Assembly (NCBI GenBank): GCA_038046605.1 | Contig: JBBSVW010000090.1 | Coordinates: 1 to 16,819 of the forward strand | Origin: Candidatus Micrarchaeota archaeon | GTDB taxonomy: Archaea; Micrarchaeota; Micrarchaeia; Norongarragalinales; SBBD01 | DNA length: 16,819 nucleotides | Direction of reading: 5' to 3' | Position numbers and translations under genes: made by a program | Part shown: piece by piece, positions 3,420-12,754 of the stretch | Layout: every line of letters starts with the position of its first letter | Position numbering within the stretch: the first letter of the stretch is position 1 | The notes under the pieces: model-generated | Told to the model about the DNA's origin: nothing | Databases searched by the model: none | The model's input: only the letters and a program-made list of their open reading frames with translations

Positions 3420-4265
3420 CTAAACTATTTCGTGGGGCAAATTTACTTCCTTCAAAATTGAAATCAATTTATCCCTAGTCGCCGCATTCATGCTCTTCTT
3501 CTCTATCAACGCTACCTCCAGCTTTTCCGCGCTCTTTTCCATCGCCTGCTTCACGATTTCCGGAGTTACCTCATCCAGATTGTGCTTTGAGCACACGTAA
3601 GCGAACTCGTAATTTTGTTCCAGCATCAATCTGGAGAATTTAGAGCAATAATGCGTTCCCCCAAAGCCGATTGCGGTTTTAGCTTCTGGACTAGCCTTTT
3701 GCCCCTTTTTCCATTTATTGCAAACTTCCATAATGCAATCGGAAAACAGGTCTCCGGCTACTTCATTTGCGAACTCCTTATCCGTACTGCCAATTTCCAC
3801 GAAAAGGATTGGCGCTTTGAGGGGCGTTGGTCCGTGGTGGGTTGCCTCCATTGAAAACGGGAAACCCTCAAGCGGATGGGAAGATAGGTAATTGGAAGCA
3901 ATTTTCAGAGCTGATGCGGATGAATGCGCCAACTCATTGGGATTACCGCCCAATTTGTTTCCAGCTCCGAAATTGCCGCACGTGTGCGCCGTCACCGCCG
4001 GAGAATTGGTTTCGCTCTTATGGGTTGATGCAACAATCAGGAGGTCGGCATCATTGAACAGAGGATAATCCTTCAAATAATCCGAAAAAATGTGCAAGGT
4101 GGTTAGTTCGACGAGCTTCAATCCGTTTTTTTCCCAGCTGCGCCATTCGTATTTCCCATCTCCACTCTTTATATGGGGCTTTTCCAAAAAGCCATGCTTT
4201 CCAATAAGGGATTTTGCAATCGTCTCCCCGGCAAGGTTCCCTTTGCTGAATGCAATAAGAGGCAT
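3420..4265 (-). CDS. dtdA: D-aminoacyl-tRNA deacylase (archaeal DTD2/DtdA)
   Basis: Motifs STHKS, HTCGNFG, EATHHGP, FVEIGST and GFGGTHY. The start is most likely ATG 4265 (MPLIAFS), because the track's upstream extension overlaps E1. Confidence 0.95.
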   Translation of the reverse strand: MPLIAFSKGNLAGETIAKSLIGKHGFLEKPHIKSGDGKYEWRSWEKNGLKLVELTTLHIFSDYLKDYPLFNDADLLIVASTHKSETNSPAVTAHTCGNFGAGNKLGGNPNELAHSSASALKIASNYLSSHPLEGFPFSMEATHHGPTPLKAPILFVEIGSTDKEFANEVAGDLFSDCIMEVCNKWKKGQKASPEAKTAIGFGGTHYCSKFSRLMLEQNYEFAYVCSKHNLDEVTPEIVKQAMEKSAEKLEVALIEKKSMNAATRDKLISILKEVNLPHEIV

Positions 4266-4316
4266 GGAATAATTGAAATGGGAGAGATTAAAAAATTCCA
4301 GCGCTTGCATATTTCC

Positions 4317-5087
4317 ATGGAAATCGACTCCGATCCATTCGATAGGCAAAAACGGATACCAAGCTGGGAGCAGGGGCCAATCACGGATGCAAATGTGCTT
4401 GTGGTGGGTGCTGGCGCCCTTGGGAACGAAGTTGTGAAATCGCTTTGCCAATTAGGTGTTGGCAAGATCACGCTTGTTGATTACGATATTGTAGTTAAGG
4501 CTAATTTGAACCGCTGCTTATTTTTCACGCCGGAAGATGCAGAAAACAAGATGCTAAAGGCGGAAGCTATTGCCGAAAGGGCACAAAAGCAATATCCCGA
4601 AACTAAAATTTCATACATAATCCGGAAAGTGGAGGAGCTGAAGGAGGAATTCTATTCCGAATTCGATTGCGCATTTTCCTGTCTTGACAATTTGAATGCC
4701 AGATTGCATTTGAATGCGCAATGCTATGGCAAAATCCCCCTAATTGACGGCGGCACAACCGGCTTTTTGGGCAAAGTGCAAGTTGTCAAATCCCCCTCCA
4801 GCTGCATCGAATGCGCGATGAGCAAAAATGACTACAAGCTTTTGTGGCAAAAATACAGCTGCGTCGGGGAGGTGCTGGATTTCATCGATCCCAAGATGCC
4901 GGCTCTCTCAACAACCAACAGCATCATCGCAGCCCTGCAGGTAAATGAATTTCTTAAATTGAGAATGGATTCCCTGAAAAACGAAAACAACCTGGTCGGG
5001 AAATACCTGCTTTTTGACGGGAGGAAAAACGGCTTCCGGATTTTCGAGGTTCAAAAGAGGAAGGAGTGCCCGGTGCATTTATTATGA
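4317..5087 (+). CDS. Ubiquitin-activating enzyme E1-like (ThiF/UBA fold, UBA3-like)
   Basis: VLVVGAGALG nucleotide-binding motif, DYD..V..NLNR, CLDN..AR, PLIDGGTTGFLG, CIEC and C-terminal CPVH zinc ligands, and a candidate catalytic Cys in KYSCVG (codon 4860-4862). Start is 4317 or 4278. Confidence 0.93.
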   Translation: MEIDSDPFDRQKRIPSWEQGPITDANVLVVGAGALGNEVVKSLCQLGVGKITLVDYDIVVKANLNRCLFFTPEDAENKMLKAEAIAERAQKQYPETKISYIIRKVEELKEEFYSEFDCAFSCLDNLNARLHLNAQCYGKIPLIDGGTTGFLGKVQVVKSPSSCIECAMSKNDYKLLWQKYSCVGEVLDFIDPKMPALSTTNSIIAALQVNEFLKLRMDSLKNENNLVGKYLLFDGRKNGFRIFEVQKRKECPVHLL

Positions 5088-5962
5088 AAATACTCGCAAT
5101 TTCAGACCTAGGAAGCTGGGAAGGTTTAAAATCTATATTCGATAAGACAAAACCCGATGTGGTGGCACTCGCTGGCGATTTAATATCAGACGGTTTTGCT
5201 GAATTTCGGGCAAGTGTATTCGAGAAAATTCCGAAATTCAAACAAGAGAGAAAAATACTCATGAAAAGATTCGGAGTTACGCTCTCAAAAACCGGTTCTT
5301 ACTGTCTTAATGGCAATAACTTTAGTGTATGGGCTGACGCACTTGATTCACTAGAAGATAAATATGAAGCAAGCTCGGAGTTTGAAAAAATTAGGAAAAC
5401 TATTCATACAGATAAGTTTTACGATTTTCTAAGATATGCTGGAAAAAAATCATCGGTTATTGTTGTTAAAGGCGATCACGATGAAGATTTTAAAAATGAA
5501 TACAATTTAGAATTAATTAACAGCATCCGAAAGTGCGCGGAAATTTCAGGGAAATTATTGAATATCGATGGAATGAATTTCTTAGGCTTAGGCTTTAACG
5601 AAACACACTACTTTCGAGTTCTTCGACCTTTAGTAAAAAAATACCAAAATAAGGTAGACGTTCTTGTAACTCATGCTGAACAGGAAAGAATGCCCATTTT
5701 AAGCCAATTTAGCCCAAAATTAATCATTCGGGGACATTTTGGCTCTGGAAAATACTACGTGAACAATATTCCGTCTGTCTTCACAGCTGATGCTTATTAC
5801 TCAACTATTAATATTGGCTTCAATGGAATTATCGATATTATCCAATATGCCAAAAACCATGATAAGAAAATAACTATTTTAGAAAAAGGAAGCTGCGCTC
5901 CTTGGTTTTCTAACAAATCTGAATTCGAAATATATAGTTGGCTTAAACCATATTCAGAATGA
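5084..5962 (+). CDS. Calcineurin-like metallophosphoesterase with degenerate motifs
   Basis: MKILAISD, PDVVALAGDL, VKGDHD, LVTH and IIRGH. The start overlaps the E1 stop (ATGA at 5084-5087). Confidence 0.85.
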   Translation: MKILAISDLGSWEGLKSIFDKTKPDVVALAGDLISDGFAEFRASVFEKIPKFKQERKILMKRFGVTLSKTGSYCLNGNNFSVWADALDSLEDKYEASSEFEKIRKTIHTDKFYDFLRYAGKKSSVIVVKGDHDEDFKNEYNLELINSIRKCAEISGKLLNIDGMNFLGLGFNETHYFRVLRPLVKKYQNKVDVLVTHAEQERMPILSQFSPKLIIRGHFGSGKYYVNNIPSVFTADAYYSTINIGFNGIIDIIQYAKNHDKKITILEKGSCAPWFSNKSEFEIYSWLKPYSE

Positions 5963-7048
5963 GATATCCGTTATCTGCTTGAATGCCTCCTCGACCTTGA
6001 AATCGCCCATTGCCCCCCCGCCGCCAAGCCTTCTTCCGCAGCGCACGCATTTGGTATCGCCCGAAATTATCGCTTCAAAGCAATCCTTATGGTAAGGGGC
6101 GCCGCAAAAGCAATGGCCGTACTTTGGGTTGTGCTCTTCTTGCTTGACGGAAATCATGAATCCGGTTTTGCATAGCTCGCATTTCTCATCGTTTGAGGAG
6201 ATTTCGGCTGCTTTGGATGACATTTCTGAAATTGCCCGATTGTAAAAAGGCTTAGCAATGTCTGAATTGGGCTTGGAAGCATTTTTGGATGGGGAATTTC
6301 GTTTTTCTGAATTTGGCGATTGCTTATCAATGGTATCATCTGCTTTTGCATCAAAATCCTTCCCATCTTTTTTGACTATATGCCGCTCAACGAAGGGCGA
6401 AGTTTTCTTCAAGAGGCGCTTTTGCTCATCAGTTGGACCAAACCTTCGCATGAGGTCCATTATGTCAATTGTTTCTTCCGAACGCTTCTCCTCCGGAAGC
6501 TCCTGTATCTGCACATGGCGCTGCTCTATTGCCTTCCAGAGGATTTCAACAGGCAGTTTTGCCTGGATTGTATGGGAAAAATCAATAGGCTTGTTATCGG
6601 TTGGGTGTTGGTTTTGGCTATCAATAGCCGATACAGCCCCATTCCCCTCAGGTTTAGCCTTAATTTTTTTCTCCTTCCTCCCAAGCCATGCATCGGCAGC
6701 TTTTTTCCATTTCTCAGAATAATCATTGACACCCTTCATGCTAAGGAAAATGGATTTGGAATCGCCGGAAAATGAGATGTAGCCGCCCTCGCCAAGGGAT
6801 TTGAGCCTTTCGAGGAATTCTGCTTCACCGACATTGAAAATGGCGCGCATTTCGGAAGCATCGCTTTTACCCTCCTTCAATAATTGCAATAGGATGAAAT
6901 CGAACTTCTCCAGCCTAAGCTTTGGCCCTGCCTTCAATGGCACGGCTATTGCCCGCTTTTTCCTTGGGCCTTTTTGCTTCTTTTCGGGTATTCGCGCATC
7001 TATTGCCGGCTCCATTTCCACAATGATCCTCTCCTGGATTTCGTCCAT
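5954..7048 (-). CDS. Winged-helix + C-terminal C4HC3 RING-type zinc finger protein; putative E3 ligase
   Basis: wHTH-like segment LEKFDFILLQLLKEG...LERLKSLGEGGYI...LSMKG (about 6720-6920), a low-complexity linker, then C-x2-C-x19-C-x-C-x4-H-x2-C-x10-C-x2-C (6038-6181). The CGAPYHKDC core resembles prokaryotic RING family 1. ATG 7048; GTG 7057 is an alternative. Confidence 0.75.
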   Translation of the reverse strand: MDEIQERIIVEMEPAIDARIPEKKQKGPRKKRAIAVPLKAGPKLRLEKFDFILLQLLKEGKSDASEMRAIFNVGEAEFLERLKSLGEGGYISFSGDSKSIFLSMKGVNDYSEKWKKAADAWLGRKEKKIKAKPEGNGAVSAIDSQNQHPTDNKPIDFSHTIQAKLPVEILWKAIEQRHVQIQELPEEKRSEETIDIMDLMRRFGPTDEQKRLLKKTSPFVERHIVKKDGKDFDAKADDTIDKQSPNSEKRNSPSKNASKPNSDIAKPFYNRAISEMSSKAAEISSNDEKCELCKTGFMISVKQEEHNPKYGHCFCGAPYHKDCFEAIISGDTKCVRCGRRLGGGGAMGDFKVEEAFKQITDISF

Positions 7049-7140
7049 AACAACCACAATTGCGGATTGTGAAAGGCATTTACGAACGAATCAATTTCCA
7101 TTATTCATGTTTTAGACAAATTTTCTAATTCCACTTGGTT

Positions 7141-7623
7141 TTACTTCTTATCAATAACAGCAAAGCTTACCTCATAATAAGCATTTCCCTCAACACGAAA
7201 AATCCGCTCCTGCATCCTGCCGCCCTCCTTTTTCAGGGGATCAACCACCATTGCAATATTGAAGGGAGCGGAAAAATACTTGTTTTGCGTTGCAACATCG
7301 GTTGCCGAAAGCCAGCAGCCGTACGATGGGTGCGAATGGATCCAGCCAACTATCAGCTTCTTTTCCTTGAAATGCTTGCTGAAAGCCTGTGTGAGCTCTG
7401 CGAATGCCAATTTGTTGAATTTGACAGAAACCGCAGTTGAGCTGTTGCTGGCGGTTATGAAATGATCCACCACCACATATTCAAATCCCTTCCATTGGAA
7501 AATATCCCCCACCAGCAGCCCCAGCGCCTCTTTTCCATGCCTTGCGGCATCCTCCATGATCCGCTCCGCCTTTTGAAGGGCCGGATTTGAGATGTAAACA
7601 TCAAATGGATGCAAAGAATCCAT
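7141..7623 (-). CDS. JAB1/MPN+ (JAMM) metalloprotease, Rpn11/CSN5-like
   Basis: EALGLLVG...IVGWIHSHPSYGCWLSATD...AMVVDP gives the full E...HSH-x7-S-x2-D JAMM motif. GGTGA SD before ATG 7623. Confidence 0.95.
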   Translation of the reverse strand: MDSLHPFDVYISNPALQKAERIMEDAARHGKEALGLLVGDIFQWKGFEYVVVDHFITASNSSTAVSVKFNKLAFAELTQAFSKHFKEKKLIVGWIHSHPSYGCWLSATDVATQNKYFSAPFNIAMVVDPLKKEGGRMQERIFRVEGNAYYEVSFAVIDKK

Positions 7624-7701
7624 GGAGTTCACCAAAATTAAATGAATAAAGACTAGGGGGAAAAGGGCTAAAACGCATCAACCAAACATATTCCAAATCG
7701 C

Positions 7702-8037
7702 CTAGTCCAAACCAATTATTTTCTTTATCTTTTTCCCTAAATCATGCCTTTTCTTGCGATCCTCAGTGATGCGCTTTTGGAGCTCGCCATGCTCAAGCGG
7801 GGGCGAAACCGGGGTTATATCCGAAAGCATGTCCTCCCGCAGGCGGTCCCTTGCCGTATCAACTGATTCGTACCGCTCAATTTTGCGCTTTCCAAGGATC
7901 AGATTGTCGGGCTCGTCGTTTTCAAGGAGCATGGAATAGTCCCGCTCCTCAACAACTTTTGGCTTTTTGGATGCGCTGTGCTTTTTTTCCTCAATGTGCT
8001 TCTTTTCCCTAACTTCGACAACACGCGGCTTGCCCAT
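7702..8037 (-). CDS. Hypothetical charged protein in the ubiquitin locus, with two KP[KR]VV motifs
   Basis: ATG 8037 with GGGGGAG SD. Sequence begins MGKPRVVEVREKK...SKKPKVVEE. Co-oriented with JAB and RING. Confidence 0.7.
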   Translation of the reverse strand: MGKPRVVEVREKKHIEEKKHSASKKPKVVEERDYSMLLENDEPDNLILGKRKIERYESVDTARDRLREDMLSDITPVSPPLEHGELQKRITEDRKKRHDLGKKIKKIIGLD

Positions 8038-8148
8038 AACACTCCCCCATATTGTTTGCCCAATTTGCAACAAAAAAGCTTAAGGGGCGAAGGCATTAAT
8101 ATACTTTCTAGCGTCATCTAATTAACCTAAAAAAACTGGGTGACCCAC
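8038..8148. promoter_or_regulatory. Divergent promoter region for the JAB/RING arm and the Ubl/E2/nurA arm
   Basis: 111-bp AT-rich gap between divergent genes. ATTAATATA TATA-like element near 8095-8103; GGGTGA SD at 8138-8143. Confidence 0.45.
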
Positions 8149-8391
8149 ATGGCAGAATTCAACATTACGGTTTCGCACACAACAAGCGGGAAGGAGACGG
8201 TTCTTGCAGTTGAGCCCGAATTCACGGTTTCTTCCGTGCTTGAGGTTTTGACGGAATCACTCCAGCTAAAGGACCGCTTTGTTTTGGCAACGGAGGACAA
8301 TAAAATCCTCAATCCGGAGACCTCGCTTCTGGAGGCTGGAATAAAGGAGAACGATACGCTATTGCTGATGCCCGACCCGACGGGGGGATAG
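8149..8391 (+). CDS. Ubiquitin-like protein (beta-grasp), 80 aa, ending in Gly-Gly
   Basis: TTSGKETVLAVEPEFTV resembles ubiquitin TLTGKTITLEVEPSDTI. KILNPETSLLEAGIKENDTLLLMPDPTGG* resembles [35 protein letters not shown] SD. Confidence 0.92.
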   Translation: MAEFNITVSHTTSGKETVLAVEPEFTVSSVLEVLTESLQLKDRFVLATEDNKILNPETSLLEAGIKENDTLLLMPDPTGG

Positions 8392-8393
8392 GC

Positions 8394-8765
8394 ATGCCCG
8401 AAAGGAATGAGAAAAGGGGAAAGGTTCCGCAGGTTAATGCAGGCGAAGGCGAGCATAAACTTGTTGAATTTATTCGCGCCACCAATTTGCAAGCGCCAAG
8501 CAATAGTGGAAAGCACTTAATCCGGGGCTATATGACGGGAAACAAGCTTTGGCTGCAAGCCCAGGGCGGAATAGATAATGCGCTCGAACAAAAGCTTAGG
8601 GAACTGGGAATAGAGCACACAAAGCACCGGATTTCGATACCACATACCCCAAGGGCATTTTCTATTGATGAGACCCATCTTACCGGCGATTTATTCCGTA
8701 GGATCAAGCTTTATTTCGATGCCCATAAGGAGGCACATATTGTGTTTTCGGCCGATCAACAATAG
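8394..8765 (+). CDS. Hypothetical protein between Ubl and E2
   Basis: 123-aa ATG ORF starting 2 nt after the Ubl stop. No recognisable family. Confidence 0.7.
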   Translation: MPERNEKRGKVPQVNAGEGEHKLVEFIRATNLQAPSNSGKHLIRGYMTGNKLWLQAQGGIDNALEQKLRELGIEHTKHRISIPHTPRAFSIDETHLTGDLFRRIKLYFDAHKEAHIVFSADQQ

Positions 8766-8868
8766 CAAATGAGTGCCCAACCAGGGACGCATTTGACTCG
8801 CAACACCCGAAGCCATCCGTGCTGGCATTAATATTCCTTGCCCATCAATTTTACTTACGTGAAAAAAT

Positions 8869-9357
8869 ATGCCCCAGCTTCCGGATGCGGTGTTCCAAAG
8901 AAGGCTTTCAGCTGAGTTTGATGGCATGCAAAAGGCTGGCTTTCGGTTCAGCGCCGACCCCTCAAAAATCAGCTACGAAGTCGAATTGAAGGCAAAGGCT
9001 TTGCAACGGATTGGAAGCTCAATTTCAGTTCGAAACAACCACAAATTCAGGATTTCGTTAAAGCGCTCATACCCCTATGCCGGCGGCTTTGATGTTGTCT
9101 GGCTAACACCTATTTTCCACCCTAACATCAATGACAAGGATGGGAAGGTATGCATCCATATCCTGACCGATTGGGCAGCCTCGCAAACGCTTGCGGGCTT
9201 AGTCAAGGGCATCGAGCACATGCTGACACACCCAAATGTTAAGAGCCCCCTCAATGTGGATGCCGGCGAATACTTCTATTTCCACCCCGAACTGATTGAT
9301 AATAAGTTCGACAATTTGGAAAAAACAAGCAAACCAAAAATTGTTTTGCAGAAATGA
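8869..9357 (+). CDS. Ubiquitin-conjugating enzyme E2 (UBC fold)
   Basis: RRLSAEF N-terminal helix, YPY, TPIFHPNI...GKVCIHIL..W (H84-P85-N86, catalytic C95 at codon 9151-9153), and L.HPN..SPLN..A. Confidence 0.95.
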   Translation: MPQLPDAVFQRRLSAEFDGMQKAGFRFSADPSKISYEVELKAKALQRIGSSISVRNNHKFRISLKRSYPYAGGFDVVWLTPIFHPNINDKDGKVCIHILTDWAASQTLAGLVKGIEHMLTHPNVKSPLNVDAGEYFYFHPELIDNKFDNLEKTSKPKIVLQK

Positions 9358-9389
9358 TTGTGATTTCAAACAACAAGTGAGCAAAAACC

Positions 9390-9509
9390 ATGGTTCTTGC
9401 AAAAAAGCCCAAAATAGTTTCAATCAAGGAAAGGAAGAGCAAGGAAAAAGAGCCGCCAAGCCATAAGACGCATAAATTTGTCCACACATACATGCCAAAA
9501 AAAGAGTAG
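9390..9509 (+). CDS. Unannotated 39-aa basic micro-protein MVLAKKPKIVSIKERKSKEKEPPSHKTHKFVHTYMPKKE
   Basis: Hand translation from ATG 9390 to TAG 9507-9509. It fills the E2-nurA gap on the same strand with a weak AGTGAG SD. Its N-terminus resembles that of the 8037 protein. Confidence 0.6.
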   Translation: MVLAKKPKIVSIKERKSKEKEPPSHKTHKFVHTYMPKKE

Positions 9510-9588
9510 GAATTGAATCATCATATGATTTGGCAAAATGGATCGGCATCCATCCCCTTTTTCAACCCAAAACCAGCACGATAAAGTT

Positions 9589-10662
9589 ATGATCAACGAA
9601 TCCGCAATCAAAAACGCTGTTGAGCAGATCCAGGCAGGCGAGAGCGCGCAAAAACGCATCGCGGAAAAAATGCGTGCGGAAAAGGGGGAAATAGCCTTTA
9701 GGGAATCACTAGAGAAAAAGCTGATCAATGAAATTCCGGATATCGAAGTAAATGGGAAAGTTGCCGCAGTCGATGGGGGCCTTCTTGCCGAGGAGCTGCA
9801 TTCAATTGACATCGTCTTGGTGAGGGCTGCCGCCGTGATTTTCGAATATGAAAACTCCAAACTCAAAAAGCACCACTACCACCCTTCGTCATTCCCGGAT
9901 TACGAGGTTTACACCCCATCGGCACTGGACGCCCACGAGGCGATTTGGTTTAGGAATATTGCGCGTCTGGAAAAGGAAATCAGCTGCGCAATCGAGGCAA
10001 TTGAAAAATACGCCCCAAAAGCGCTTTTCCTGGACGGCTCGATTGTGCCGCAGGTATCGGATAAGCCCGCCAAGGAATCTGAAATTTACCCCCACTATGA
10101 GAATCTAGTGGAAAAATACAAGAAACTCTTTTCAATTTCGGAAAAAAGCAATTGCCTGCTTGTGGGCATAATCAAGGACTCAAGGGGAAAGCAGTTCCTC
10201 AATTTGGCGCAGAGGCATTTGGGGCTTGGGGTAGCGGATGATATGGTTTTGAAGAAAACAAATGATTCGGCTTTCCTGTTCAATTTGCTAAATGAAAAGG
10301 AGCGGACGTTTGCATTCAAGTATGCAAGCATAACAGAGCACCCAATCCTTAGGGATTTGCACGAATACGCAGACCGGATTTCCTCATTCTACCTAAAAGC
10401 CGTGAAATACGATAGGCCCCTTCGGATTGATTTCCTGCTTCCGGAGGGCGATGGCAAGCGAATTGAGGAGACCGCATCCTTAATCTACTCATTAAGCAAG
10501 CACAACTCACAATATGCTTATCCGGCAATCCTAATTGAAGCTGATTTGAGGGCGGCAATGGACCCAAAGGAGCTTGAAATTGTGTATGGAAGGATATTCT
10601 CATCGCTCGGTAGGCAATCCAGCATATTCAAATTGAGAAGGAATACAAGGCCGTTCAGGTAG
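9589..10662 (+). CDS. nurA: NurA 5'-3' DNA double-strand-break repair nuclease
   Basis: AAVDGG, FLDGS, GIIKDS and YPAILIEADLRA motifs. Start is ATG 9589 or 9538. Confidence 0.92.
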   Translation: MINESAIKNAVEQIQAGESAQKRIAEKMRAEKGEIAFRESLEKKLINEIPDIEVNGKVAAVDGGLLAEELHSIDIVLVRAAAVIFEYENSKLKKHHYHPSSFPDYEVYTPSALDAHEAIWFRNIARLEKEISCAIEAIEKYAPKALFLDGSIVPQVSDKPAKESEIYPHYENLVEKYKKLFSISEKSNCLLVGIIKDSRGKQFLNLAQRHLGLGVADDMVLKKTNDSAFLFNLLNEKERTFAFKYASITEHPILRDLHEYADRISSFYLKAVKYDRPLRIDFLLPEGDGKRIEETASLIYSLSKHNSQYAYPAILIEADLRAAMDPKELEIVYGRIFSSLGRQSSIFKLRRNTRPFR

Positions 10663-10690: not shown

Positions 10691-11452
10691 CTATTCAATC
10701 GTAGTATTTGTCGAATTTGTGGTTAGGTTAGACGAAATATAGGTCGTTTGGCCGGATGTTATTGAAAACATCTGGAAATCCGGATTATAACCAGTCTTGC
10801 GGAATTCAAGGACATAGCTATTTGGATATAGGGAAAGCGTCAAGGGCGAAACGCCCCTAAATGGGTATGGGTACGACGAACCCGATATTCCAACGTAAAC
10901 ATTAGCTCCTGATGGCGTTGTCCCCGCCATTAATGTTCCATTTGCCGGCGGCACGGATGGTGAGGGGGTTGGTGTGCTCGCATTTACCGTAGGCGTTGGC
11001 GATGATGCATTGACAGTAGGTGTTGGTGAGGTCGCATTAACAGTCGGATAAACGCTTGGAGATGGCGTAGTCGCATTTACTGTCGGAGTTGGGGACGATG
11101 CGTTTATGGTTGGTGTGGGCGAAGTTGCGTTCACTGTGGGGATAATGGTCGGGGTTGGAGTTAACGAAACAGTTGCCCACGGCGTTGCTGTTGAATTAGC
11201 CTTTTTAACGCACGTGAGTGCATCCCCGCACGAATAACCGGTTGGACAGCCGCATTTTAGGCAATTTTGTACGGTAAAGCCACCCTGGCAATAATATGGT
11301 TTTGTTGCAAGGCATTGCCCATTTTGGCTAGCTGAACATTTTAATGGCCCGATTGCCTCGCCGACCGGTGAGGACAGGCTAGGAACAACATAAAATAGAA
11401 TTACGCCAAGAATAACAAGCGCCGCAATACCATACAGAATCTTATTGTCCAT
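10691..11452 (-). CDS. Membrane-anchored or secreted surface glycoprotein: TM helix, Cys-rich domain, Pro/Thr-rich repeats, PEGA domain
   Basis: N-terminal ILYGIAALVILGVILFYVV helix, an 8-Cys segment, PTVNATSPT repeats, and a PEGA-like C-terminus GTL...TTPSGANVYV...G.SPL.....PNSYVLEFRKTGY. ATG 11452; 11464 is an alternative. Confidence 0.85.
   Translation of the reverse strand: MDNKILYGIAALVILGVILFYVVPSLSSPVGEAIGPLKCSASQNGQCLATKPYYCQGGFTVQNCLKCGCPTGYSCGDALTCVKKANSTATPWATVSLTPTPTIIPTVNATSPTPTINASSPTPTVNATTPSPSVYPTVNATSPTPTVNASSPTPTVNASTPTPSPSVPPANGTLMAGTTPSGANVYVGISGSSYPYPFRGVSPLTLSLYPNSYVLEFRKTGYNPDFQMFSITSGQTTYISSNLTTNSTNTTIE
10967..11140 (-). repeat. Intragenic 27-bp / 9-aa tandem repeats PT[VI]NA[TS][ST]P[TS], 6 copies
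   Basis: PTVNATSPT PTINASSPT PTVNATTPS (PSVY) PTVNATSPT PTVNASSPT PTVNASTPT, with synonymous DNA divergence between copies. Confidence 0.85.
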
Positions 11453-11555
11453 TTGTACCACCATAAATTATTACGTTTAAAGAGTAAAGCAATATTTTTA
11501 AACTAATTATATCCCTATTGGGCGGAAGTGCTTGAAATATGTGGGGCAAAAATAG

Positions 11556-11933
11556 CTATTTTTGAATTAAATCATCAAATTTTATCCCCGAATTCAACTC
11601 CTTATCACTTAGGGTAAACGCCTTTTCCGTCTCCTTCATCGTGATGAGCGGAAAGAACCTCCACTCCTCGCGGCTCACCTTCCAGGCGATGTAAAAAGGG
11701 ATAGCCGTGCGGGCTTCGAATTCCTTCATCGCAGCCATCCGGTCCTTTTCGATCCAAAGGTTCCCGGAATTCCAAGCCTTGCATTCTATTGCAAATTTCT
11801 TGGTGGAACTAAGAACAATCAGATCCGGAGAAGTTGAATCGTGAGCGCTCCCTGCTGCGCGCACAACGAAAAAACCCCTCCCCTCGAACATCTTCTTTAG
11901 CTGGCGTTCGTAGTTGGCGCCCTTTGTGGACAT
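11556..11933 (-). CDS. hjc: Holliday junction resolvase Hjc
   Basis: KGANYERQL...GFFVVRAAGS....PDLI.......AIECK is the Hjc PD-(D/E)xK signature. Confidence 0.95.
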   Translation of the reverse strand: MSTKGANYERQLKKMFEGRGFFVVRAAGSAHDSTSPDLIVLSSTKKFAIECKAWNSGNLWIEKDRMAAMKEFEARTAIPFYIAWKVSREEWRFFPLITMKETEKAFTLSDKELNSGIKFDDLIQK

Positions 11934-11980: not shown

Positions 11981-12754
11981 ATGGCAATGAAAAAAGGGCT
12001 CATACAACAATACGGGATCACGGGAAAATTCAAGGGATGGCATACCGCAGGGCAGGCACTTGTAGATTTGAAAGGATACCATCCGGAGCTTCCACATTCC
12101 CTAAATGTCCTAAGGGAGCACTTACCTATGTTATGGCCCAAACATTTTGAAATAACAAAGGGGAAAAAAAGGCTTAATTTGTTCAGACCGCTGACCATGC
12201 AGGAAGCATCGGATGTAGCCGCTAAAATCAAGGCAGCGATCCCATATGGCGGCAGCACAAATTTGCCAAAGGATGAACGGGTTTTCCTAAACAGGAACGA
12301 TTTGCTTCAATCCGTTTACGATATTGCTGGCCAAATAGGTGAAATCGAACCTAGCGAGCTAAAAAGAAGGCAGAGGGATGCAGGCTTGGCGATAGCAAAA
12401 AAGAAGGCGGGAAAAATACCTTCAACTCCGGATTACTATTCAGCAGCAACTGATGTCCGCCCCAAATTGGTGTTTGAGGAAGATTTGAAAAATGCGCATT
12501 ACCTGCACTTGAAGCCAAATGGGCTCACAGGAAGGGAAGCCGAAATATACCTGCTTTCAAGAATTCCAAGGCACGATTTCACGCCGGTAGAAATTGCCAA
12601 ACATTTTGGCGTAAGCCCGCAGCACATAAGACAAACAATTCGGGAAGTCGATGAAAGGATAAATGGACCGTTGCGAAGGCAGGAGAGGGAAATTAGGGAA
12701 AAAATGGAAAGGGAATTCAGGGATAGGGAAATGCGCACAAGGAAAGCGGCATGA
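11981..12754 (+). CDS. Hypothetical protein with C-terminal sigma70-region-4/LuxR-like HTH
   Basis: GLTGREAEIYLLS....FTPVEIAKHFGVSPQHIRQTIREV. GGAGG SD. N-terminal 180 aa not recognised. Confidence 0.7.
   Translation: MAMKKGLIQQYGITGKFKGWHTAGQALVDLKGYHPELPHSLNVLREHLPMLWPKHFEITKGKKRLNLFRPLTMQEASDVAAKIKAAIPYGGSTNLPKDERVFLNRNDLLQSVYDIAGQIGEIEPSELKRRQRDAGLAIAKKKAGKIPSTPDYYSAATDVRPKLVFEEDLKNAHYLHLKPNGLTGREAEIYLLSRIPRHDFTPVEIAKHFGVSPQHIRQTIREVDERINGPLRRQEREIREKMEREFRDREMRTRKAA

Follow-up and report, generated by a model that had tools for sequence, protein, structure and literature searches.

The DNA studied here is contig JBBSVW010000090.1 (assembly GCA_038046605.1), which was analysed over its entire length of 16,819 nucleotides (16.8 kb; hereafter, the window). 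It belongs to a groundwater archaeon with a genome of 1.64 Mb that is 90.7% complete. Between positions 4317 and 9509, the window carries the genes of a predicted ubiquitin-type conjugation system. According to the list of open reading frames (ORFs), the + strand encodes in this stretch, in order, an activating enzyme (E1), a metallophosphoesterase (MPE), a ubiquitin-like modifier (Ubl), a protein termed orfB, a conjugating enzyme (E2), and a 39-codon ORF. The - strand encodes a winged-helix/RING-like protein of 367 amino acids (a candidate E3 ligase), a JAB protease, and a protein termed orfA, and the locus consists of two divergent transcription units (Table 1). A preliminary description, made from the sequence alone, had reported the five components of a cascade with their catalytic motifs in this stretch, and Pfam searches, alignments, and a fold model bore this out. 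The boundaries that it gave are also exact: the orthologous E1s start at the Met of position 4317, and the 39-codon ORF, which is genuine and conserved, has its stop codon at 9509. It had taken the host to be DPANN-like and neither Asgard nor TACK; this follows from the lineage (Archaea; Nanobdellati; Microcaldota; Micrarchaeia; order Norongarragalinales). The setting is likewise the one described: the flanks are made up of housekeeping genes (RpoL, D-aminoacyl-tRNA deacylase, NurA, Hjc, archease, a Bud32/RIO-type kinase, uS7, uS12, and NusA-KH), and no integrase or transposase was seen among the scanned ORFs of the window.

Table 1. Features of the locus, followed by insertions and neighbouring genes.
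Feature	Position	Strand	Remarks
Minimal E1 (Ubl-activating enzyme), 256 amino acids	4317..5087	+	Pfam ThiF 4.7e-47; longer ORF from 4173
Candidate E3, 367 amino acids: winged helix, linker, C4HC3 RING-like domain	5954..7057	-	Probable start Met 7048
Rpn11/CSN5-type JAB (MPN+) isopeptidase, predicted	7141..7635	-	Pfam JAB 2.5e-14
Ubl modifier, 83 amino acids (GTG 8140) or 80 amino acids (Met 8149)	8140..8391	+	Ends PDPTGG-stop; weak Pfam Ubl matches
UBC-fold E2 with HPN, catalytic Cys95, and conserved C-terminal KPRIV-type tail	8869..9357	+	Pfam UQ_con 1.8e-16
orfA, conserved disordered protein upstream of JAB	7702..8037	-	ORF to 8073; probable start Met 8037
Microprotein, 39 amino acids	9390..9509	+	N-terminal KPRIV-type motif, then EPPSE-like block
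Calcineurin-like MPE	5066..5962	+	Metallophos 2.1e-9
orfB, 123 amino acids, between Ubl and E2	8394..8765	+	No significant family match
D-aminoacyl-tRNA deacylase, divergent neighbour of E1	3420..4262	-	tRNA_deacylase 8.9e-60
NurA nuclease	9538..10662	+	NurA 8.4e-15

Conservation was followed in a sample of 41 genomes (that of the window and 40 relatives), which covers 11 families of one order, and synteny in 20 loci that were fetched and searched with blastp. In addition, a pattern scan of a genome collection gave at least 599 matches, of which at least 527 encode an E2 relative, and 80 loci were kept from it. All counts on these 80 loci, given below, hold among the matches listed. The nearest relative in this set is locus L031, the E2 of which is 83% identical to that of the window.

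The E1 contains the GxGxxG, DRQ, and NLNRC motifs, the Asp of the CLDN motif, the CxxC and CxxH pairs, and a loop Cys195 (counted from the start at 4278), all of which are invariant in 19 aligned orthologues. By its position, the Cys of the crossover loop is the candidate catalytic residue. In each of the 19 orthologues, the CxxH zinc motif is followed by 1–8 residues before the protein ends. Since the E1 ends directly after the zinc site, it has neither an inserted Cys domain nor a C-terminal ubiquitin-fold domain; the C-terminal ubiquitin-like domain present on the E1 of some clusters in PMC5654768 is absent here. A profile search against PDB sequences gave UBA6, UBA1, UBA3, and SAE2 as the best matches (1e-33 to 1e-29), ahead of MoeB (5e-23) and ThiF (4e-21). 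In NCBIfam, the E1 scored far under every equivalog cut-off (81.1 bits versus 450 in the case of UbaA; ThiF and MoeB models were also listed), and a second, more typical ThiF protein is encoded on another contig of the same genome. The aligned orthologues are 54–81% identical to the E1 of the window. At a threshold of 1e-10, it was matched in 37 of the 41 genomes; one match is a paralogue (27% identity), and the other 36 are orthologues with at least 42% identity.

Of all proteins of the locus, the Ubl shows the strongest conservation, with 68–94% identity to the window's copy across the aligned orthologues. It was found in 38 of 41 genomes (44–95% identity). The AlphaFold2 model has a beta-grasp fold with a predicted local distance difference test (pLDDT) value of 83.9. 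Foldseek matched it to SUMO2/3, Caldiarchaeum ubiquitin, and ubiquitin (E about 1e-5, template modelling (TM) scores 0.76–0.87), and also to ISG15 and NEDD8; TM was 0.83 with 22% identity for Caldiarchaeum ubiquitin, and 0.81–0.87 with 28% identity for ubiquitin. With the sequence profile, mono-ubiquitin was matched weakly (E 0.03–0.16), and the value of 6e-21 for poly-ubiquitin is a sum over repeats. Gly-Gly is the exact C-terminus in 18 of 21 orthologues and, because the ORF stops at Gly-Gly, the Ubl is encoded in a mature, ready-to-use form. The other three orthologues continue past Gly-Gly by 26 residues (L015:4335-4661), 8 residues (L026:2978-3247), and 2 residues (L020:5350-5595), and would need to be trimmed, presumably by the JAB, as has been demonstrated for the Caldiarchaeum precursor. 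The profile alignment places the invariant Lys18 of the Ubl at Lys11 of ubiquitin and the common Lys55 at Lys48, which makes chain formation conceivable.

The E2 scored 60.5 bits with UQ_con (cut-off 27). All 20 aligned sequences have H84, P85, N86, and C95, and Trp102 and a PNxxSPLN-like block are conserved as well. Against the PDB, the E2 profile matched UBE2H best (8.8e-18), with UBE2A/B and UBE2C near and eukaryotic E2s at about 1e-17. The enzyme is present in 40 of 41 genomes, and identity to the window's copy is 40–83%. The JAB domain scored 53.5 bits (cut-off 22.5), and its JAMM residues E36, H100, H102, S110, and D113 are invariant in the alignment. In the same type of search, its profile matched Rpn11 (5e-23), CSN5 (3e-21), the Caldiarchaeum Rpn11-like protein (1e-19), and AMSH (1e-9). 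It is also present in 40 of 41 genomes, with 40–75% identity. The designation of the locus as eukaryote-type was sound, as the E1, E2, JAB, and Ubl are each nearer to eukaryote-type families than to SAMP/UbaA or MoeB/ThiF.

The 367-amino-acid protein contains an Lrp/AsnC-like winged helix (residues ~45–125), a variable, long, low-complexity linker, and a RING-like domain (residues 293–340). At full length it had no Pfam or NCBIfam match, and no NCBIfam model matched the E2 or the Ubl either. Within the last 85 residues, 21 of 21 orthologues contain the pattern C-x2-C-x18-19-C-x-C-x4-H-x2-C-x10-11-C-x2-C, with His at the third position in one of them. Nine Cys/His positions are kept in this region, eight of them in cross-brace order, and Leu295 between the first two Cys is invariant. 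When the RING-like domains were searched in isolation, Prok-RING_1 (PF14446) matched 21 of 21 (best E 3.9e-4) and zf-RING_2 matched 17 of 21, all under the curated cut-offs. An Atlas search with the domain gave, as the ten best neighbours that carry a family, only members of the RING clan (scores 0.84–0.89); we treat this as a lead only. The protein was found in 40 of 41 genomes, and its identity to the window's copy is 23–72%.

The E2 was then modelled together with the RING-like domain and two zinc ions. The model obtained a score of 0.66, and the best of three controls 0.19; the pass mark is reached by 58 of 80 solved complexes and by 2 of 110 mismatched pairs. The runs agreed in 100% of contacts, and the pLDDT of the partner was at least 78. 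In the model, E2 residues 2–16 (helix 1), Pro69, and 103–107 face both zinc loops and the central helix of the RING-like domain, and these modelled contacts are those of the canonical RING-E2 interface. Because RING-E2 complexes have already been solved, the pass of this model indicates likeness, not binding.

A hidden Markov model (HMM) of the RING-like domain gave 57 matches, which include every Micrarchaeota locus covering the region, and matched none of the 32 kept loci of other archaea. In 1.84 billion representative proteins, it found 72 at E ≤ 1e-10, and the next one at 2e-5. The protein is 173–422 amino acids long, with the RING-like domain at the extreme C-terminus, in 68 of these 72 representatives. 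Judged from these sequences, the family is small, sharply bounded, and of one architecture. The large winged-helix RING protein of the preliminary description is a real, lineage-specific protein, as the alignments, the domain HMM, and the large-scale protein search indicate. Its assignment as a RING-type E3 is that of a candidate, based on the ligand pattern, the sub-threshold Pfam matches, and the modelled complex with E2.

The winged helix allows another explanation, namely that this protein is a DNA-binding transcription regulator with a zinc finger, and that conjugation proceeds independently of an E3, as in SAMPylation or E2-only systems. The Lrp/AsnC-like domain was the sole part of the protein matched by its profile in the PDB (3.8e-4), although Pfam HTH_24 matched it in only one of 21 single sequences. 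The below-cut-off RING matches, the poor AlphaFold2 model of the lone domain, and the Methanomassiliicoccales operons, which do without this protein (0 of 32 loci), would fit a regulator as well. We nevertheless consider this explanation unlikely. The eight zinc ligands are invariant and stand in RING order, together with a hydrophobic residue between Cys 1 and Cys 2; the canonical surface of the E2 is the one used in the modelled complex, which passes its controls; and the Atlas neighbours, as a lead only, point to the RING clan. Moreover, the roles of a regulator and of an E3 are compatible with each other.

The relative order RING-JAB-Ubl-E2 is kept in all 20 fetched loci. The E1 adjoins the RING gene in 18 of them and is located elsewhere in the genome in the other two. 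The expectation of the preliminary description that the genes form a coherent locus was confirmed: they co-occur and remain syntenic across the order, and the opposite outcome, a lack of co-occurrence in related genomes, did not arise. The Pfam E2 family was detected in all 35 genomes sampled from the order, in none of 266 genomes from 20 other families of the phylum, and in none of 14 control genomes. This data indicates a trait that is order-wide, and neither phylum-wide nor general to DPANN archaea.

Outside Micrarchaeota, the scan yielded 32 of the 80 kept loci, mostly from Methanomassiliicoccales and other Thermoplasmata, and also from Methanofastidiosia and Desulfurococcales. The E1, Ubl, E2, and JAB occur together in 24 of the 32; the order is E1-Ubl-E2-JAB in 23 and different in L088. 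One locus, from an uncultured archaeon (L078:5414-6519), contains two tandem E2 paralogues with 32% and 33% identity to the E2 of the window, and blastp found no E1, Ubl, or JAB match in the 12.5 kb covered. We built an E1 tree of 62 rows (Micrarchaeota, Thermoplasmata-type, and a few others), which was rooted on the second ThiF of the genome. The 26 Thermoplasmata-type rows form one clade (100 in the Shimodaira-Hasegawa-like approximate likelihood ratio test, SH-aLRT) and a second clade holds 34 Micrarchaeota rows (SH-aLRT 91); a single Micrarchaeota row on a long branch, L059, lies outside this second clade. The separation of the E1 clades argues against a recent exchange between Micrarchaeota and Thermoplasmata, and the tree is silent on the source of the system.

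We conclude that the locus probably encodes a eukaryote-type system for Ubl conjugation, which is chromosomal and passed on vertically within one order of Micrarchaeota. A Ubl, an E2, a JAB, and an E1 are also the content of bacterial antiviral systems of the Bil/Bub or CBASS (cyclic oligonucleotide-based antiphage signalling system) Cap2/Cap3 kind, and a mobile defence module of this sort could have landed here by chance. The PADLOC 'E1-E2' models matched the E1 (6e-18), the PADLOC 'JAB' model matched the JAB (2.8e-8), and restriction to a single order implies acquisition at some point. We regard a chance-landed defence module as very unlikely, however. All 35 genomes sampled from the order contain the system, at one syntenic housekeeping site beside the D-aminoacyl-tRNA deacylase gene, with no integrase or transposase among the scanned ORFs of the window, and the E1 tree parts Micrarchaeota cleanly from Thermoplasmata. 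With PADLOC, the E1 matches are confined to the adenylation domain, and the E2, Ubl, and RING proteins had no match in the release used (2023), which may lack Bil models. The E1 and E2 are also encoded by separate genes here, in contrast to the fused E1-E2 of Cap2. The least probable explanation would make the locus a MoaD/ThiS/Urm1-SAMP-type system for sulfur carriage or tRNA thiolation instead of protein tagging. In its favour, the E1 is MoeB-sized with MoeB-like zinc motifs, and ThiF, MoeB, and UbaA models are among its NCBIfam matches. Against it, all these matches are far below their cut-offs, the more typical ThiF is encoded elsewhere in the genome, the locus always contains a UBC E2, an Rpn11-type JAB, and the RING-like protein and no sulfurtransferase, and the Ubl matches ubiquitin and SUMO.

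Several results weigh against the conjugation system as we read it. The E1-to-E2 step is its least secure part, because canonical E1s pass the modifier to the E2 by means of a Cys domain and a C-terminal Ubl domain, neither of which is present in this E1. Every Pfam RING match is below the cut-off, and the domain of the window reached only 18.1 bits (E 0.0027) with Prok-RING_1, versus a cut-off of 29.1. The AlphaFold2 model of the RING-like domain alone, without zinc, had a pLDDT of 51.3, which is too poor for a fold search, and HMMER detected no relative of this domain beyond its own 72 clusters among the 1.84 billion proteins. One of the 41 genomes, G015 (79% complete, 0.7 Mb), is the sole one without a match for any of the five proteins. 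Finally, confinement to one order of the phylum is as compatible with an acquired accessory module as it is with a core function.

The E2 ends in a conserved tail with the motif [KRG]-P-[RK]-[IVL]-[IVL] (KPRIV-type), in which Pro156 is invariant in 20 of 20 E2s. The motif was found in 46 of 47 distinct Micrarchaeota E2s and in 22 of 32 E2s of other archaea. The same motif occurs in the two small proteins that the preliminary description had listed as accessory, orfA and the 39-codon microprotein, and both proved to be conserved. In orfA, two KPRIV-type motifs near the N-terminus are combined with a basic, hydrophobic C-terminal tail; neither Pfam nor NCBIfam gave a family match, and an Atlas search gave no usable one. 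With blastp, orfA was detected in 5 of 20 fetched loci, and most relatives have a same-strand ORF in the gap between JAB and Ubl. The motif KP[RK][IVL][IVL] is present in 28 of 41 distinct ORFs of this kind. In the case of the microprotein, a small motif-bearing ORF lies 3′ of the E2 gene in 31 of 47 distinct Micrarchaeota loci, and 34 distinct homologues can be aligned over ~35 residues. An HMM of the microprotein, used on a six-frame translation of the window's genome, matched only the microprotein ORF itself (1.4e-13) and orfA (3e-3, at both ends).

Genome-wide, the motif occurs 10 times in 2362 ORFs, with ~11 expected; three of these occurrences are in this locus, and the microprotein ORF adds a fourth. 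No group of probable clients emerged from this genome-wide count, which is close to expectation. The terminal matches outside the locus are in a Na+/H+ exchanger, a Rossmann N-terminus, and a signal peptide. By inspection of the sequences, many copies of orfA and of the microprotein end in a basic, hydrophobic tail; our impression, which we take as no more than an assumption, is that these tails are reminiscent of MinD-type membrane-targeting helices. The KPRIV motif is most likely a docking peptide through which the E2 tail, orfA, and the microprotein would bind one common partner. A more specific, tentative version, which we think has a small chance of being correct, is that the docking peptide is specific to this E2 family, where it replaces the missing ubiquitin-fold domain of the minimal E1 or binds the Ubl non-covalently, as SUMO-interacting motifs do. 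In Micrarchaeota, it would have been copied onto orfA and the microprotein, which would be dedicated membrane-associated adaptors, competitors, or first substrates. If so, the system would tag or recruit proteins at the membrane of a very small archaeal cell that probably lives attached to a host, and feeding of the proteasome would not be the main role.

We propose the following sequence of chemical steps for the conjugation system. The minimal E1 would adenylate the C-terminus of the Ubl and hold the Ubl as a thioester on the Cys of the crossover loop, from which it would be handed to Cys95 of the E2. The C4HC3 RING-like domain may bind helix 1 and loops 4 and 7 of the E2 and promote transfer to target lysines, with the targets picked by the winged-helix domain or by the linker. 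The Rpn11-type JAB would take the tag off and, in a few relatives, trim the extended Ubl. The E2 tail, orfA, and the microprotein would dock on one common partner via the KPRIV-type motif. The genes of the alpha and beta subunits of the 20S proteasome are present in the genome of the window, and tagging for proteasomal degradation is possible. Non-proteolytic roles are indicated at least as much, because the candidate E3 has a winged helix and the motif proteins have membrane-type tails.

Two of the genes in the stretch do not belong to this system. The preliminary layout holds in the case of the E1, RING, JAB, Ubl, and E2 genes, but not for the MPE as a part of the system. Of the 41 genomes, that of the window is the only one in which the MPE gene was found, and none of the 20 fetched or the 80 kept related loci contains it; in relatives, the convergent E1 and RING genes abut where it sits in the window. 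The GC content is 0.361 in positions 5001–6000 versus 0.44–0.50 elsewhere in the window. Among contigs from three DNA runs, a second sample of the same study has identical pieces that bridge both junctions of the MPE, and no insertion-free variant was found there. The MPE is a species-specific insertion outside the system. It also has a weak match (1e-7) to the PADLOC candidate family PDC-S10. Likewise, orfB, which had been counted among the accessory genes with orfA and the microprotein, does not share their conservation: among the 20 fetched and the 80 kept loci, a homologue occurs in the closest relative only (40% identity; L012 and L031). We class it as an insertion at the level of the genus, outside the conserved set of genes.

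The deacylase, which is not known to be part of the system, has its gene beside that of the E1 in 15 of the 20 fetched loci and in most of the named ones. This linkage spans several families and may reflect either plain synteny or a functional connection. Among the 20 fetched loci, the NurA gene is located 3′ of the E2 gene in 5 only, each of them from family f1, to which the window belongs. NurA stands alone after the E2 and the microprotein, with no HerA, Mre11, or Rad50 beside it, and a Hjc resolvase gene follows 0.9 kb onward (11556-11933). Between them, positions 10691-11464 encode a protein that is either secreted or located in the membrane; its N-terminal part is rich in Cys, and it contains about seven 'SPTPTVNA'-like repeats rich in Pro and Thr and matches the PEGA domain weakly (4e-4). 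Further on, a 257-amino-acid protein (11981-12754) has a weak C-terminal match to sigma-70 region 4/HTH (1e-3) and a Lys/Arg/Glu-rich tail. On the other side of the locus, a small PRC-barrel protein is encoded (1768-2100; 1.1e-10). Archaeal PRC-barrel proteins are linked to cell division, according to the available text of 10.1101/2023.03.28.534520.

New here are the order-wide spread, the exclusion of the MPE and orfB, the minimal E1, the sharply bounded family of the candidate E3, and the KPRIV motif common to the E2 tail, orfA, and the microprotein. Discussion of complete archaeal cascades of E1, E2, RING, and deubiquitinase usually centres on Aigarchaeota and Asgard archaea, where they are regarded as forerunners of the system of eukaryotes. 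What we describe appears to be the same kind of cascade, fixed order-wide in genome-reduced DPANN archaea of 0.7–1.6 Mb. It stands out by a modifier nearly as strictly conserved as eukaryotic ubiquitin, a core-only E1, a two-domain candidate E3, and a linear motif that links the E2 to two tiny partners. The system is minimal and probably tractable, and it is suited to asking how an E1 without a ubiquitin-fold domain finds its E2, how archaeal RING ligases pick their targets, and what purpose ubiquitin-type tagging serves in tiny cells.

The comparison with known systems starts from SAMP/UbaA/JAMM1, with which the locus shares a Gly-Gly beta-grasp modifier, a MoeB-sized E1, and a JAMM protease. 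Unlike that system, which has no E2 or E3, it contains an E2 and a RING-like gene, and it scores far from the SAMP equivalogs in NCBIfam (81.1 bits versus 450 for UbaA and 21.2 versus 130 for desampylase). The work of Burroughs, Iyer, and Aravind from 2011 is reportedly the source of Prok-RING (PF14446), in prokaryotic neighbourhoods of E1, E2, JAB, and Ubl genes. The likeness to these neighbourhoods lies in the match of Prok-RING_1, below its cut-off, to 21 of 21 RING-like domains. They are described as mobile in the available text of PMC3417536, in contrast to the system studied here, which is syntenic across an order.

A close published parallel in gene content is the operon of Caldiarchaeum subterraneum, which encodes Ub, E1-like, E2-like, srfp, and Rpn11-like proteins (Hennell James et al. 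2017, PMC5654768; Fuchs et al. 2018, PMC6043591; these and the sources below are cited as far as their available text goes). Both loci contain the same five protein types, if the candidate E3 is counted as a RING protein, with an Rpn11-like JAB and a Ubl of the ubiquitin fold. The modelled contact of E2 loops 4 and 7 with the RING-like domain involves the surfaces that were mutated in PMC5654768. The Caldiarchaeum E2 is auto-modified on a C-terminal Lys (PMC5654768), and the tail of the E2 of the window is conserved and Lys-rich. The differences concern the host (Aigarchaeota there, DPANN here) and the layout, which is one operon with Rpn11 beside it in Caldiarchaeum (PMC5654768, Figure 1) versus two divergent units here. 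The srfp is a small RING-H2 protein, whereas the candidate E3 here is a winged-helix, linker, and C4HC3 protein of 240–420 amino acids. The Ub precursor of Caldiarchaeum has nine extra residues, in contrast to the mature Ubl in 18 of 21 orthologues. Finally, the minimal E1 without a C-terminal Ubl domain and the two extra conserved KPRIV-motif proteins are found here.

In Asgard archaea, the E1, E2, RING, and Ub genes form a chromosomal cluster, as do the genes of the E1, E2, candidate E3, and Ubl here. These clusters are often linked to genes of the ESCRT (endosomal sorting) machinery (10.1101/2020.10.19.343400), whereas the neighbours here are the deacylase gene and, in one family, NurA. Of wider surveys, PMC5654768 screened all NCBI archaeal assemblies of February 2017 and presents its Clusters I–III in a supplementary figure, and Grau-Bove et al. 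2015 (PMC4327156) name only Crenarchaeota, a marine group II euryarchaeote, and Aigarchaeota. We found no description of this Micrarchaeota system in the main texts of the literature searched. The word 'ubiquitin' is absent from the main texts of two papers on Micrarchaeota genomes (PMC12892359 and PMC8561730).

The loci of Methanomassiliicoccales and other Thermoplasmata (L079–L109, for example L079:4891-7208) encode a minimal E1 that is ~36–45% identical to that of the window, an E2 that is 27–37% identical, and the same type of JAB, and the E2 tail is of the PKVV/PRIV type in 22 of 32 loci. Unlike the locus of the window, their four genes are co-directional, the Ubl is only 22–43% identical, and the winged-helix RING protein is present in none of 32 (none within 6 kb); the HMM of the microprotein gave no clear match in these loci. 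An Rpn11-like protein of Methanomassiliicoccus luminyensis is mentioned in PMC4453063. The Methanomassiliicoccales operons indicate that such cascades are wider among archaea than the main texts searched state.

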